Sequence record: FJ373894
DNA from: Shigella phage Ag3
Direction: 5' to 3' (one strand)
DNA: 64,000 nucleotides
Shown one piece after another: positions 3,758 to 45,570 of the stretch; positions within the stretch are counted from its first letter, which is position 1; the number at the start of each line of letters is the position of its first letter. The notes beneath the pieces are model-generated. The model saw only the letters and a list, made by a program, of their open reading frames with translations, did no database searches and was not told the DNA's origin. A program made the position numbers and the translations under genes.

Positions 3758-4399
3758 ATGCGCGGGATCAGTAGATTGTTGTTGGCATGCGCGATGCTCT
3801 TGCTTACGAGCTGTCGCATCTTTGTCACGCCAATAATTTCTGTTTCCGAACTCTGGAACCCAGAAGTACGCACCGTACCCGTGACGTTGTCGGCCAGTGT
3901 TCCTACTTGTAACAAGGGTATGCTGGACATCATCGTGCAAGAGTTCCAGACCTTTCAGAAGCTCGTGCCTTTGGGTTGCTTCGAGGAGAACACGAGCACC
4001 CTCAAGCCATACTGGAAGACCACGATTCCCCTCCTGCGTCGTGGCGATGAAGGGAAGATTCCATACCTATCAGCAAGTATTTATTACTCTCAGAACAACA
4101 GCATCATCATCACTTTTAATCCATCATTCTACGCCAAGCTGAAGCAACACATGGTTGGGCGACTGAGTGAAACGTCGGATATAATCGTGACGTTCAAGAT
4201 CATGAATGACTCAGACAAGCCAGTACGAATCGCAACTCAGGGTGTGTTTGTCAACAACGATGCTGTTGGGAATGAGATGAACATCTTCGAAGTTAACCCA
4301 GGGGGGACGATCTGGATTAGACTGAGTAATGTGGGTGTGAACTCCCTACTGTTGGATGGCATCGAACCAGTGGGAGTTCTTCCGGCGCGGGAGCGCTGA
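3758..4399 (+). CDS. putative lipoprotein
   Basis: ORF track 3731..4399 (TTG); ATG at 3758 gives MRGISRLLLACAMLLLTSC with lipobox-like LTSC. Confidence 0.45.
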   Translation: MRGISRLLLACAMLLLTSCRIFVTPIISVSELWNPEVRTVPVTLSASVPTCNKGMLDIIVQEFQTFQKLVPLGCFEENTSTLKPYWKTTIPLLRRGDEGKIPYLSASIYYSQNNSIIITFNPSFYAKLKQHMVGRLSETSDIIVTFKIMNDSDKPVRIATQGVFVNNDAVGNEMNIFEVNPGGTIWIRLSNVGVNSLLLDGIEPVGVLPARER

Positions 4400-41051: not shown

Positions 41052-41624
41052 ATGCACATCAACACTGCTATCACGAAACACATCATTCCTTTGTTAGAGA
41101 AATATGAAGGGAAGAAATCAAAGGATATTTCGTTTGAAGATATATCCGCCGAAGTGAAGCGCTTGACACGTAAAGAAGTCAATTTCCGCCGTGTTCCCCC
41201 ATCTGCAGTAGATCGGGCAAAGTCAGATTTGAACACGGCTTCCACTTTCTCCTTTAATATCGATGCCACGGCGACATTGGTATCCGAATTAACGCAGTCG
41301 TCACAAGCCCGTCGCGATCGCTTCCGCCATTTATGTGTGGCCAACGACTATCCTAGCACCCGTGTCGGCATCAAGCTTGAAGCAATCCGCTCCGAGGTGT
41401 GCTTCACAGTGAACTATATCCTGGAGCCTGAAACCAGCAACATTTATTTCGCAGCCATCATCGGCTTCTATGGTACATCCATTAATGGTTGGGCTGAGCG
41501 CGTTGAATTAAAAGAGACTCTGAACAAACACAGCATCCCGTCCACCCATTATATGTCGCTCGCAGCCGCCCGTGAATATGTGTATCTGCTCGAGCGTGAT
41601 GTGAAGTTAAAAGTGGTAAAATAA
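41052..41624 (+). CDS. hypothetical protein (190 aa)
   Basis: AAGGAA RBS; TATAAT-like hexamer 41010..41015 upstream. Confidence 0.5.
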   Translation: MHINTAITKHIIPLLEKYEGKKSKDISFEDISAEVKRLTRKEVNFRRVPPSAVDRAKSDLNTASTFSFNIDATATLVSELTQSSQARRDRFRHLCVANDYPSTRVGIKLEAIRSEVCFTVNYILEPETSNIYFAAIIGFYGTSINGWAERVELKETLNKHSIPSTHYMSLAAAREYVYLLERDVKLKVVK

Positions 41625-41681: not shown

Positions 41682-41828
41682 ATGTTTTACATGATGTTGC
41701 TCCTCATCCTCCTGATCGGGATTACCTTTACTCTCCTGGGTCTACCCGATCAGTCCGGTACTCAGTCGCCCACTTCGGCGCATCCGGTTTTGAGTGAAGG
41801 TTCGTCCGCACTGCTGTGGGCAGTGTAG
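41682..41828 (+). CDS. small hydrophobic peptide (48 aa)
   Basis: Manually found; GGAAGGGAGGG RBS; MFYMMLLLILLIGITF. Confidence 0.25.
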   Translation: MFYMMLLLILLIGITFTLLGLPDQSGTQSPTSAHPVLSEGSSALLWAV

Positions 41829-43681
41829 CTCAAAGAGGAGAGGACTTTTCAAATTAGCTGGTCTGTGGTAAAGTATTAAACACGAGGGAAACAGCGCATT
41901 GAGTTAGGCATCTAAAGCCGACCTCACTAATCCCAGTCTCAGGGGCATGCGTGAATAGAGGCGTGACATCCACCTTGCATGGTGTTAGTGGACGCACTGA
42001 CCGTCGGAGAACGAAACTCCCTGTTGTAGCGTGATTAGCTCAGAAATAGAGAGCACCCCGTTGGCAAGTCGACACCAACACATAGGGGAGGTCGGGGGCG
42101 CTAATCTCCATCACGCCGACAACATTATGAGTCTTCATAGAGGGTTCATAATGTTGCGTCAAAGGGCAACAAAGGTTCCTGTTGGTTGAATTAACTTGAT
42201 TCATAGTTCCTGCTGATCTTCCCGGATTCGAAGGAGCACCAACAGGCGAGGCCGGATGCGTAAGTTCCGGCAAATCGATGGCGAGGTGGTGCATTGGTGA
42301 CACGGGGTAGCGCCCAGAAGTGTGGTTCGATTCCACACCCTCGCCAACAAATTAAAGGGTTTTCAATAATGGATTGCAGAGTATAGTTAACCCACTGAAC
42401 GAAAAGCTGTTTGGGCACTAGACAAACACTTCGATGTGAACCCAGGACATGGCGTCTTGTGCTCAAACAGGTTTTCGTTTTCGTTGTGCGTGACTTTGCG
42501 GGTTTTAAGAAACAGACCACAAAAATAAATGCAAACGATGATGTAGTTCTGATGGCGGCGTAATAGCCTATAAGTCAGTGAGGTCTTCCGACTCCTCATA
42601 ACAAAATTCGGCGCACTAAAAATAGGCGGGAGGGTGTGATTAATAAGCTCCCGCCGACATCTGAGAGGGCACTTGATCGAGGTCGGTATCCGCTATACGG
42701 GATGCTGTAAAATGAATCCACGGAGTGTCCTCCCAGATGTGTCTCACAGCGCATCAGTTTGCAGTTATGCAAGCTTCAATAAGTTAAAACGCGCCTCAGG
42801 CGTTATGGGATAAAGCCTTAAACAGTGGAATCCCCAGGGCTGGCAATCCCTGTTAAAGAAGTAGCCGTGTGGGGGTCAGCCCCCACAACGCAAAGTAGAG
42901 TCCTCTGGACGTTGAACTTAACCCAAGGGTTGATTCACATGGTGAACGTTCCCGGCGGCGATAGTACAAGATGAGGGGTCATTGAAGTTCAGAGAACTCT
43001 ACTTTGCGGCAGGTACTGCAAAACAGTGATCATCCTGACAAGCGTGATCACTCTTCGACAAAGCATCGCATCGTGGCCATCAACCACATCCTCGCTCTAG
43101 TGATGAGTGGTGTTATGTTCTGTCGGCCAGCCTCGTTTGGTCCGAGCGTAGAGGACAAGTGCTGAAGTGTGACGAAGACACTGAAGTGCGGGTTGTTTAG
43201 TGAATCCTGCTAAGCGCAAGGGTTGAGTGGCAAGAAACACCTGAGGATAAGTCAACGCCATTATTCGCCATGATAATGGCATCGGGAGGCACCCGACGCT
43301 AAACCGTTTGGCCTGACGAAACAGGCAAGTATCTGGGGTCGATCACCTTATCCTCACCCAGATGCGGGTTGTAGCATGGCTGCAACTCTGATGGCTCTCA
43401 ATATTCCATAATGTGTATCGGTTGTGGATGACAGGTAAATGAGCGGAAAGGCGAGAGCCATCAGAGTTGTGACCAACCCGATCTTGCAAGCCCGTATCCC
43501 TGTATGGTTAAGACTTGCAAGTGGAAAGCCCTGGAAAAATAAACGCCTGTGGTGAGGCTACGGTGCAAGCCAAAGACCCACAGAAGCGCGTTGCCGTGAG
43601 GCGCACAAACAGGCATGCATGAACTGATCATGCACAAACGGGATAAAGGGTTGACAGTCCTTGGTTGGTCACACAATAATT

Positions 43682-43761
43682 TGGAGGATGATGGAAGGGG
43701 TAGACATTCCCTGAGGGGATGGCGGCAGCCGTTGAAGGTTCGAATCCTTCTCCTCCAACCA
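43682..43761 (+). tRNA. tRNA-Ser-like (anticodon UGA), non-canonical
   Basis: Perfect acceptor TGGAGGA/TCCTCCA and T-arm GAAGGTTCGAATCCTTC; long variable arm; C at position 33 and poor D-stem. Confidence 0.4.
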
Positions 43762-43956: not shown

Positions 43957-43988
43957 TAAACCAGTTGTTCAATAAACAACTGGTGAGT

Positions 43989-44189
43989 ATGATGAAAACG
44001 TTCGGTGATTTTATTGCTGAGTGGGATGGCCTCGCCACCGACAACAAAGAGATTGTCGAGTTTGTTGAAAAGCGAGGTGACAAGTGGGTTGTCCTTGACC
44101 ACACCAAGACGAAGGTTCTTGGTACACATGACACCAAAGCTGACGCTGATGCCCAATTAAGGGCGATTGAAGCGAACAAGCACGGATAA
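43989..44189 (+). CDS. small hypothetical protein (66 aa)
   Basis: ORF track 43965..44189; ATG at 43989 after GGTGAG; CTAAATAA motif upstream. Confidence 0.4.
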   Translation: MMKTFGDFIAEWDGLATDNKEIVEFVEKRGDKWVVLDHTKTKVLGTHDTKADADAQLRAIEANKHG

Positions 44190-44829: not shown

Positions 44830-44913
44830 GCGGGAGCCATAGGGGTTGGACAGTAGCCGACTGATCATCGGCGACGATCACTGGACAGGTTCGAATCCTG
44901 ATCTCCCGCTCCA
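44830..44913 (+). tRNA. tRNA-like gene, possibly Ile (GAU) or pseudo-tRNA
   Basis: Acceptor GCGGGAG/CTCCCGC, anticodon stem GCCGA/TCGGC with loop CTGATCA, T-loop TTCGAAT; extra base and 12-nt variable region. Confidence 0.35.
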
Positions 44914-45006: not shown

Positions 45007-45570
45007 AATTTGCGATCATCGCGGAAATCCCAGACGCGAGTGGAGGCCAGGGTGAAGACTGGCACATGGGCACTGACGGCAAAGGTGTTCTACCTCCTGG
45101 AATTGGGTGGCCTGAATGGTAGGGAAAGCAGCCAAGCGTTGTGGGTTCAACTCCCACTCACCCAGCCCCAGATGGAATGGGTCCATCATCGCAAATCATA
45201 TTTTGGGCGTGACTTCCTGAAGAGTTAGAAGGTGTGCATGCCGACTCTCTCGTAATCGGGTGTTTAGGAAGTTAAGAAAATCGCGGCGAGGATAGTGAAA
45301 TGCAAATAGCTTTCTCTACGCCGACGACTTCAGGTTCGATTCCTGACGCGCTCTCCCATAAGGCAGTACCAGTGCGAAGTGTGTAGTCTTTTCAACCCAT
45401 CCCCATCGATGTGGTATAGCCAGGTAAGGAAACCTGGCTTTCTTTTGCCCCCAGCTTAATGTCTTCTTATCACCCCAAATATGTAATCCTTCGTCGTAGT
45501 TTGTTCAATGATACAAAGGGGTTTAAAATTTAACCGTTAAAACCCCTATCATTGATTTGAGGATACACCA

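Follow-up and report, generated by a model that had tools for sequence, protein, structure and literature searches.

A 1.9-kb block of the genome of Shigella phage Ag3 (sequence record FJ373894), immediately upstream of a transfer RNA (tRNA) cluster, appears from its sequence to be a mosaic of separate structured-RNA genes on the + strand, forming the 5' part of a phage tRNA and small-RNA locus. The block occupies positions 41830-43680 of the window, by which we mean the whole stretch of 64,000 nucleotides (nt) that was analysed, and we refer to its successive modules as A to J. Module D is predicted to specify an RNA derived from transfer-messenger RNA (tmRNA), here called the tag RNA, which carries a short tag reading frame and an arm complementary to host tmRNA. 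The reading that we favour, with a probability of roughly 60%, is that the block is an array of RNA genes whose tag RNA docks on host tmRNA, with a swap of the tag, or else a blockade of tmRNA, as the outcome. The phage is an Agtrevirus of the Ackermannviridae, and the closest relatives of the window are Shigella phage ChubbyThor and Salmonella phages P46FS4 and SKML-39, with identities of 94-97%.

The tag RNA extends over about 42390-42655. A promoter scan placed a sigma-70-type promoter (TTTTCA-16-TATAGT) at 42360-42387, followed by a 5' hairpin of about 35 base pairs (bp) at 42397-42480 with a folding z-score, relative to shuffled sequence, of -6.2. Both promoter hexamers were kept, with a variable spacer, across Agtrevirus, Kuttervirus, Taipeivirus, Limestonevirus and Miltonvirus; six of seven aligned relatives had TTGTCA-TATAGT, among them Kevin with a 17-nt spacer, and D5lw had TTATCA. 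The hairpin stem has been rewritten by compensatory changes in D5lw and Kevin. Next come the antisense arm (42477-42521), the complement of host tmRNA nt 54-107, an A-rich linker (42522-42530), and the tag frame (42531-42563), GCA AAC GAU GAU GUA GUU CUG AUG GCG GCG UAA, which reads ANDDVVLMAA and stops. The linker has U and A at positions -5 and -4 before the resume codon, the equivalents of U85 and A86 of E. coli tmRNA, in which A86 is the main reading-frame determinant (PMC2481249). These two bases were kept in all family variants inspected, with positions -3 to -1 variable. The core shared across phages is AAAUAAAU followed by the tag frame, a tmRNA-style resume context (the host tag is ANDENYALAA). 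The initial annotation of the block, made from the sequence alone, had not noticed this tmRNA-like tag template.

A conventional small open reading frame (ORF) was considered for the same bases and rejected: an AUG 2 bases upstream of the tag would encode MQTMM and a stop in the window, and D5lw and Kevin do not have that AUG. In Salmonella phage pSal-SNUABM-02 (locus L154, 1347-1895) a free-standing HNH endonuclease gene separates the 5' hairpin from the antisense arm, exactly at their junction. Its insertion maps between window positions 42482 and 42470 and is flanked by a 13-nt duplication, and at the junction the window carries a tandem GUUUUCGUUUUCG, possibly a scar. An intron-like element had been among the early suggestions for the block. 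No group I or group II intron matched in Rfam at permissive E values up to 5-10 in any sub-region, and the HNH gene sits between modules, outside any intron-like structure; both results speak against an intron.

The tag comparison covered 22 distinct family sequences and, counted along with these, contig L004, which is a bona fide permuted tmRNA. Every tag has 10 codons, starts with AND[DN] and ends with [AV]A and a stop. Entropy over the three codon positions was 0.70, 0.38 and 0.94, and codons 1-3 and 10 varied at the third position only (for example, GCU AAU in Kuttervirus and GCA AAC elsewhere). On this pattern the tag frame appears to be under peptide-like, coding-type constraint. Other tags of the family include ANDDLMMVAA, in phage P1, and ANDNTFLAVA. 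Two of the nearest relatives, the P46FS4-like loci L147 and L148, have the tag ANDNAYLAVA in a module that is otherwise 87% identical, a difference which implies that tag variants are exchanged between very close relatives.

The stretch that begins within the tag frame and continues downstream of it folds as in tmRNA. The stop codon is apical in an analogue of helix 5 (42549-42578), built of CUGA/UCAG outer and GGC/GCC inner pairs; its outer helix was 97% paired across the family and two of its pairs changed on both sides. An H-type pseudoknot follows at 42579-42611 (stem 1, 42579-42583 with 42594-42598, 94% paired; stem 2, 42588-42591 with 42608-42611, 92.5% paired), and all four pairs of stem 2 showed double changes, the stem occurring as CCGA/UCGG, CCAA/UUGG, CCAG/CUGG, CUAG/CUAG and GUCG/CGAC. 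A third hairpin (42625-42655, z-score -3.8) has a covarying stem and a conserved 15-nt loop, GGUGUGAUUAAUAAG. Taken together, helix 5, the pseudoknot and hairpin 3 had 85% of alignment cells paired, compared with 69% in shuffles and 35-49% in slid controls.

The tag RNA therefore has the resume codon, the U85/A86-type linker, the short tag with a hydrophobic end and stop, and the stop-bearing helix 5 with pseudoknot that mark a tmRNA, the last two with the covariation just given. A tRNA-like domain, with a 7-bp acceptor bearing G3:U70, a T arm and CCA, was not found. Neither the window nor any family member yielded a tmRNA call from ARAGORN, yet the program detected permuted tmRNAs in 35 other viral contigs of the same scan. 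T-arm motif scans and relaxed ARAGORN runs around all family members gave no consistent tRNA-like partner: T-arm-bearing elements near tag modules lie at variable distances on either side and are absent in C1-type phages, and in the complete genome of phage C1 no T-arm/acceptor element was present. Nor does the tag RNA have pseudoknot 1 (PK1) upstream of its tag. The homologous stretch forms no pseudoknot in the phage RNA, and the PK1-homologous segment is wholly missing from the Felix O1-type, L045 and L095 copies. Every copy tested gave sub-threshold matches to Rfam tmRNA families, at 14-30 bits; RF04321 scored 24-30 bits against a threshold of 47, and RF01849 and RF01850 scored 14-20 bits against gathering thresholds of 50 and 84. 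We take the tag RNA to be derived from tmRNA and to lack the tRNA-like domain; with no acceptor stem, T arm or CCA, it could not be charged.

Two candidates for the missing piece were rejected. A permuted-tmRNA reading, with an upstream acceptor strand as in L004, fails in the Ackermannviridae, where that place holds the 5' hairpin, which has no T arm and covaries as a plain hairpin. The tRNA-like module C, described below, is a closed mini-helix without G3:U70 and is absent from phages that retain the tag RNA. In the prophage of E. coli 55989 (L152), about 230 nt downstream of the tag module, positions 3796-3854 hold a T arm followed by CGCCACA-A-CCC and give a weak RF00023 match (20.2 bits); with a possible 5' partner UGUGGUG at about 3723, this is a candidate resembling a tRNA-like domain, without G3:U70 and not conserved in other contexts. 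L004 and 34 other IMG/VR loci are bona fide permuted, two-piece tmRNA genes, probably from alphaproteobacterial phages or host flanks. Many have longer tags, such as ANDNFAPSGFALAA; L004 itself has the 10-residue tag ANDNVWALAA and a complete tRNA-like domain. In the literature searched, phage ssrA genes have been reported only from mycobacteriophages and Bacillus phage G, and a form consisting of the tRNA-like domain only from mycobacteriophage DS6A (PMC4131195, PMC11915505). A literature search covering phage tmRNA-like RNAs, antisense RNAs against tmRNA and non-coding RNAs of Ackermannviridae found no prior description of the tag RNA.

The tag module is widespread. When the block was compared with phage genomes by BLAST, 42477-42618 alone matched many unrelated phages, in 732 of 50,697 records. 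The carriers include Felix O1 and its relatives, P1, P7, N4-like phages of about 72 kb, siphoviruses of 46-49 kb such as C1, HK620, and phages of Erwinia, Klebsiella and Cronobacter, so that the module has been kept in at least six unrelated phage groups. Of 5,426 complete E. coli genomes, 573 also carried it, and P1-like plasmids accounted for 466 of the places and chromosomes for 150; in E. coli 55989 the genes on either side of it encode the Q antiterminator and the holin. Phages C1 and pIS4-A have it as a free-standing unit with its own promoter. Among the matches listed, nothing was annotated beneath the module, or a hypothetical protein only.

Outside the Ackermannviridae the tag module is bracketed by repeated stems of 17-18 bp (CACAACAGGUAAGAGCAUU ... 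AGUGCUCUUWYCGUUGUG). These stems occur in the E. coli 55989 prophage (L152, 3402-3470 and 3651-3728), in P1 (L001, about 2110-2210) and in L003, L012, L026, L028, L045, L073 and L126. They covary (GGGUA/UACCC in P1) and enclose variable inserts, sometimes including a T-arm-bearing tRNA-like element. Possible roles for them are as processing sites of the RNase III type or as boundaries at which modules are shuffled. L012 and L028 have an extra structured insert after hairpin 3, at +115 to +230 from the tag start, closed by CCCAUUCA/UGAAUGGG and ACCCUC/GAGGGU and containing a covarying T-arm-like hairpin.

The conserved 5' blocks of the family (UAGUUUUCGUC, GCGACU, UUUGCGG and UUUUUAGAAACUGACCAC) are the reverse complement of E. 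coli tmRNA nt ~54-107, a segment that spans PK1, the A-rich linker with U85/A86, the resume codon and tag codons 1-5. An 11-nt block of the arm is the perfect complement of GACGAAAACUA, the host-specific part of the tag, which the phage tag (GAU GAU GUN) does not share. The blocks conserved in the family alignment coincide with the blocks that pair, and the variable stretch between arm blocks 1 and 2 lies opposite a bulge. For 13 of 16 representatives, drawn from six phage groups with Ackermannviridae, P1, siphoviruses and prophages among them, the best duplex predicted by RNAduplex fell on this one tmRNA target, with energies of -41 to -49 kcal/mol and as many as 43 pairs. Against dinucleotide-preserving shuffles the arm duplex had z-scores of -3.3 to -3.7, and one shuffle in 400 did as well. 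Pairing of the arm with the tag RNA's own 3' part was 6-25 kcal/mol weaker than with tmRNA, and on cofolding the intermolecular duplex was retained in the minimum-energy dimer for both the window and P1 RNAs. Duplex energy depended on the tmRNA offered: -40 kcal/mol for the E. coli type, -30 for Yersinia, which has a divergent host tag (ANDSQYESAALAA), -32 for Aeromonadaceae and -28 for the reversed sequence. The target is essentially invariant across Enterobacterales, which would explain the conservation of the arm.

From the complementarity and the anatomy of the tag RNA we infer docking, tag swapping and RNA processing in the following form. The array would be transcribed from sigma-70-type promoters, one of them at 42360-42387, and host tRNA-processing enzymes and RNase III would cut at the tRNA-like elements and long stems to release stable small RNAs. 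The arm of the tag RNA would then dock on host tmRNA, take the place of PK1, and mask the host frame determinants and resume codon. Its 3' end would pair at the base of host PK1, placing the phage resume codon about 10 nt beyond the duplex. The corresponding distance in host tmRNA, from PK1 to the resume codon, is 11 nt, and rescue survives alteration of PK1 and of the coding sequence (PMC2481249). Given this similar spacing, rescued ribosomes would be expected to add the phage tag rather than ANDENYALAA, with the alanine-charged tRNA-like domain of the host and SmpB delivering the phage-specified tag. Should the swap fail, the duplex may still block host tmRNA or trigger its cleavage.

Several points weigh against docking and tag swapping. 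To our knowledge, use by the ribosome of a template supplied only in trans is without precedent, and the whole of the proposal is drawn from sequence. With its target invariant among the hosts, the arm gains no support from covariation, and the arm of an Aeromonas phage is E. coli-like, not adapted to the one Aeromonadaceae tmRNA examined. The match of the window's arm, taken alone, is marginal (BLAST plus/minus, E ~0.1 in a small search space), and the per-sequence shuffle tests are moderate (p ~0.003). Three of the 16 family members depart from the pattern: wV8, of Felix O1 type, pairs weakly, and L045 and L095 do not pair at that target. An alternative for part of the arm (GCGG..., CGAC...UUUGCG) is homology in the sense orientation to PK1 or the 5' region of tmRNA, since those tmRNA segments are partly self-complementary. 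The energy model, moreover, omits the cost of unfolding PK1.

The same antisense complementarity, and the want of a tRNA-like domain, would also suit a tag RNA that acts purely as an antisense inhibitor or decoy of trans-translation and whose tag is never translated. The arm would then mask the resume region or create an RNase III substrate, and the 3' part would soak up S1 or SmpB. A precedent exists in the RNA of mycobacteriophage DS6A that consists of the tRNA-like domain only, and a similar molecule inhibits E. coli tmRNA (PMC4131195, PMC11915505). An inhibitor would, however, need neither the peptide-type constraint on the tag, with its fixed 10 codons, AND[DN] start, hydrophobic [AV]A end and stop in the helix-5 loop, nor the invariant frame-setting U(-5) and A(-4), and on these grounds we consider a pure inhibitor rather unlikely.

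Docking on host tmRNA thus remains our preferred reading of the tag RNA, and the rest of the block bears on the array of which it would be part. The initial annotation had seen no credible ORF here, and this held up: ORFs within 41830-43680 are at most 109 amino acids long, overlap and lie in mixed frames. As a control, the coding sequence at 41052-41624 was 69-70% identical to its Kuttervirus and Taipeivirus counterparts and showed a third-codon-position excess of mismatches (p ~1e-8). Against the same phages, 41830-42275 and 42352-42660 were 83-94% identical, had no 3-base periodicity, and differed between relatives by insertions and deletions of 1, 2, 4 and 5 nt. The DNA of the block is thus non-coding and under stronger constraint than its protein-coding neighbour. 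Depositors have left the homologous 2 kb or so of relatives empty or filled it with short hypothetical-protein calls that vary by record, and the six short coding sequences annotated in Klebsiella phage May, along with the short ORFs that do exist here, would fit a region encoding several very small proteins. The lack of codon periodicity, the frame-breaking indels and the inconsistency of the annotated ORFs between records all argue the other way, as do the 1- and 2-nt indels and compensatory pairs that cross a 35-amino-acid ORF within the 210-nt RNA of module J, and we regard the small-protein explanation as barely credible.

We judged the presence or absence of each module across 25 Ackermannviridae loci. 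Module J (delimited here as ~43465-43676) was found in all 25, including Limestonevirus and Miltonvirus. Module B (42018-42262) and module D (promoter, hairpin and tag module, 42352-42660) were present in Agtrevirus, Kuttervirus and Taipeivirus, and module C (42276-42351) and modules E, F, H and I (within 42661-43464) have been gained or lost independently of their neighbours, each being absent from some relatives in which the neighbouring modules persist. Compensatory changes maintain base pairs in at least three modules, namely the 210-nt RNA, a tRNA-shaped core in module B and the tag RNA.

The initial annotation had offered a large structured non-coding RNA as one possibility, and structured non-coding RNA is indeed what the block seems to contain. 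A single giant ornate RNA of the GOLLD or ROOL kind, running the whole 1.9 kb, would account for a phage setting just upstream of a tRNA cluster, the nested tRNA-like elements, conservation above that of the neighbouring gene, and the absence of any predicted + strand terminator before 45418. GOLLD and ROOL are large phage-associated RNAs, often found beside tRNA genes or containing them. Their covariance models gave no match at gathering or at permissive thresholds (E up to 5), although the presence of the two models in the library was not separately confirmed. Modules C, E, F, H and I are lost separately, a conserved promoter lies inside the block, the tag module stands free in C1 and pIS4-A, and the alignments made revealed no long-range pairing between modules. 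The independent comings and goings, the internal promoter and the free-standing module indicate that the block is not one large RNA, and we rate the single-RNA account as highly improbable.

Module J, directly 5' of the first tRNA-like gene, is a 206-nt span at 43468-43673 with nine helices (the ~210-nt RNA). Its structure was derived with RNAalifold from 24 aligned sequences, 23 of them distinct. The 50 pairs were paired in 99.1% of pair cells and 14 had changes on both sides; none of 500 shuffles reached the covariation score, and sliding the 3' partners by 1-3 columns reduced pairing to 27-37%. Identity was 92% in Limestonevirus and 77% in Miltonvirus. Conspicuous features are a 24-nt strand that does not vary (GUGGAAAGCCCUGGAAAAAUAAAC) and a helix with a GNRA cap, and in most genera the module ends 5-14 nt before the first gene for a tRNA or tRNA-like RNA. 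When IMG/VR was scanned for an exact motif, the module turned up solely on contigs of ~152-162 kb, as long as Ackermannviridae genomes are. It had no Rfam match. A motif, GGAAAGCCCUGG, resembling conserved region I (CR-I) raised the question of RNase P RNA, which was rejected: no Rfam RNase P model matched, BLAST found no similarity to E. coli M1 RNA there, and on inspection the P4-like (CR-I/CR-V) pairs were out of register. On these alignments module J is a well-supported new structured RNA family specific to Ackermannviridae, one of two such well-supported new families in the array, the other being that of the tag RNA, which extends beyond the Ackermannviridae.

Degenerate tRNA genes had also been proposed for the block, and atypical tRNA-like elements do occur, at 42029-42117, 42280-42346 and, just beyond the block, 43682-43761. 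The first is the core of module B (42017-42250), a closed domain of about 235 nt that combines it with a 19-bp hairpin (42117-42158) and is 81-97% identical in Agtrevirus, Kuttervirus and Taipeivirus, above the flanking coding sequence. Alignment and RNAalifold give the domain a 10-bp closing helix, CUCCCUGUUG (42017-42026) with CAACAGG.CGAG (42240-42250). The core consists of an acceptor of 7 bp (GCGUGAU/AUCACGC), a D arm and a T-like arm whose loop is non-canonical; in place of an anticodon arm it has CCC..GGG around a hairpin UUGG-N10-CCAA, and CCA is not encoded. Taipeivirus copies have D-loop insertions of 20-45 nt. The core scored 24.2 bits with the Rfam tRNA model (RF00005), for which the gathering score is 29. 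Its acceptor, inner hairpin and T-like stem show compensatory changes, and because pairs are kept in this way the core appears to be maintained rather than decaying, so that decay, at least for this element, is not what the alignment suggests. A near-invariant hairpin, GCCGGAUGCGUAAGUUCCGGC, follows at 42251-42271; in 14 sequences two of its eight pairs vary, on one side only.

Module C contains the T arm and acceptor without an anticodon arm that had been noticed at the outset, about 4 nt from the position first given (42284..42350). In this mini-RNA at 42280-42346 the acceptor is GGCGAGG/CCUCGCC, with C-G rather than G-U as its 3:70 pair, and the molecule finishes in A-ACA; the canonical T arm is GUGUGG-UUCGAUU-CCACAC, the D stem has 3 bp, and a stub of only 3 bp stands for the anticodon arm. 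ARAGORN did not call it, and its best Rfam score was 19 bits. It is absent from the EspM4VN, May and P46FS4-like loci, in which all neighbouring modules persist. ARAGORN did call the element at 43682-43761 (module K). This tRNA-Ser(UGA)-like gene is atypical: its acceptor, T arm and CCA are good, but the D arm is disrupted and position 33 is C. Within the Rfam tRNA clan its best match was tRNA-Sec at a sub-threshold 24.5 bits, and in other genera its position holds tRNA-Met or nothing.

Elements that fail tRNA models, patchy presence, T-arm remnants downstream and a tmRNA-like module without its tRNA-like domain are what one would see in a graveyard where fragments of tRNA and tmRNA genes decay and no longer function. 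Such a graveyard would not be expected to stay 83-94% identical beside a gene at 69-70%, to accumulate compensatory changes in three modules, or to keep its tag module in at least six unrelated phage groups with conservative tag changes, and we find this explanation very unlikely.

The remaining modules are less sharply defined. Module A (41830-42016) is a conserved leader with small hairpins, 75-100% identical across Agtrevirus, Kuttervirus and Taipeivirus, in which the RNAalifold helices show little covariation. Module E (42661-42887) is rich in hairpins and present in some Agtrevirus and Kuttervirus loci only, with helix predictions that rest on low sequence diversity; its terminal hairpin, the GUGGGGG-UCAG-CCCCCAC stem already picked out near 42872, lies at 42868-42887 with a z-score of -3.1. 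Module F (42889-43008) is a 120-nt hairpin with a stem of about 22 bp (z-score -3.8), which, like the 5' hairpin at 42397-42480, adds to the stems seen originally. It was found in the Agtrevirus loci L154, L148, L147 and L125 and not in the Kuttervirus, Taipeivirus, Limestonevirus and Miltonvirus loci, some of which end short of this upstream stretch. Module G (43011-43196) is a conserved segment, 90-98% identical in Agtrevirus and Kuttervirus, whose near-invariant 35-nt core (43126-43160, GGCCAGCCUCGUUUGGUCCGAGCGUAGAGGACAAG) is still 93-97% identical in Taipeivirus and Limestonevirus although the surrounding module has diverged. Module H (43195-43304, z-score -2.7) is a distant relative of the prophage small RNA (sRNA) family STnc100/PasD (bioRxiv 10.64898/2026.05.13.724894), matching positions 30-148 of the 206 in RF02076 at 33.7 bits, where the gathering score is 47; EspM4VN and D5lw lack the segment 43197-43362. 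In phage P1 (L001, 2695-2814) an STnc100-like element, likewise below threshold at 33.4 bits, lies some 1.1 kb downstream of the phage's tag module and tRNA genes, a co-occurrence that mirrors the window. Module I (43381-43471), which abuts module J and is found in the closest relatives only, is a hairpin (z-score -5.7) whose 19-bp stem, 43381-43399 with 43453-43471, corresponds to the stem originally placed at 43389-43463.

The block is flanked on its 5' side by a 190-amino-acid gene (41052-41624, phrog_3788) and a 48-amino-acid ORF, and on its 3' side by the tRNA cluster, in which ARAGORN called genes starting at 43682, 44191, 44524 and 44918. Searches of the flanking proteins against Pfam and PHROGs returned matches of unknown function only. 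The 48-amino-acid ORF (41682-41828, phrog_8415) encodes a hydrophobic protein, a conserved small ORF at the border of the RNA array, and a conserved 74-amino-acid protein (43965-44189, phrog_3684) lies between the tRNA-like gene at 43682-43761 and tRNA-Asn. Between the tRNAs called by ARAGORN, or downstream of them, three more canonical T-arm motifs are each followed by an acceptor-like strand, at 44830-44909, ~45080-45165 and ~45270-45350 (T loops at 44885, 45141 and 45330), the first being a weak tRNA-Sec-like match in Rfam (21.4 bits). The cluster therefore seems to hold more tRNA-like elements than the four called.

If the tag RNA re-templates or blocks tmRNA, which is universal in bacteria, it would represent a new kind of phage-host interaction at the ribosome. 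Products of stalled ribosomes would receive phage tags (ANDDVVLMAA, ANDDLMMVAA, ANDNTFLAVA and others) instead of the host degron ANDENYALAA, and their fate would change, and nature would have provided a tmRNA template supplied in trans, possibly a tool for programmable protein tagging. The RNA is carried by model phages (P1, Felix O1, HK620), by Ackermannviridae used in biocontrol and by about one in ten complete E. coli genomes. More tentatively, and with less confidence than we place in docking as such, one may picture an unrecognised RNA class of enterobacterial phages, P1-type plasmids and lambdoid prophages that re-templates host ribosome rescue in trans, with the surrounding array, and with it the 210-nt RNA present at every Ackermannviridae locus examined, serving as a toolkit against host translation and RNA metabolism. 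The locus also suggests that the apparent gaps beside phage tRNA clusters are dense in RNA genes, in which annotation pipelines place spurious small ORFs.

Among known systems, GOLLD and ROOL RNAs share with the block their place in phage DNA next to tRNA genes and their high degree of structure, but the region here is modular. In the tRNA cluster of phage T4, the stable RNAs called species 1 and 2 are small, structured, encoded with tRNAs and released by tRNA-processing enzymes; the present array is larger and includes tmRNA-derived and tRNA-shaped members, and a sequence relation is not expected. Trans-acting antisense sRNAs of phages and prophages, such as DicF and STnc100/PasD, are likewise short and promoter-driven, and they too have a conserved single-stranded stretch that is the complement of part of a host RNA. 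The tag RNA differs from them in its predicted target, a stable non-coding tmRNA rather than an mRNA, in a predicted duplex of about 43 bp rather than a short seed, and in its template-like domain. The mini-tmRNA of DS6A, composed of the tRNA-like domain only, is also a partial tmRNA encoded by a phage and thought to interfere with host trans-translation (PMC4131195, PMC11915505), yet it is the mirror image of the tag RNA, and module C of the window lacks G3:U70 and is dispensable in relatives. From tmRNA itself (RF00023, RF04321, RF01849-51) the tag RNA is set apart by the loss of acceptor stem, T arm, CCA and a PK1 of its own, and by an arm antisense to host tmRNA that no described tmRNA bears. 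What the two have in common is the A-rich linker with U(-5)A(-4), the GCA resume codon, the 10-codon AND...[AV]A tag, and a stop codon in a helix-5-like hairpin with a pseudoknot next to it.

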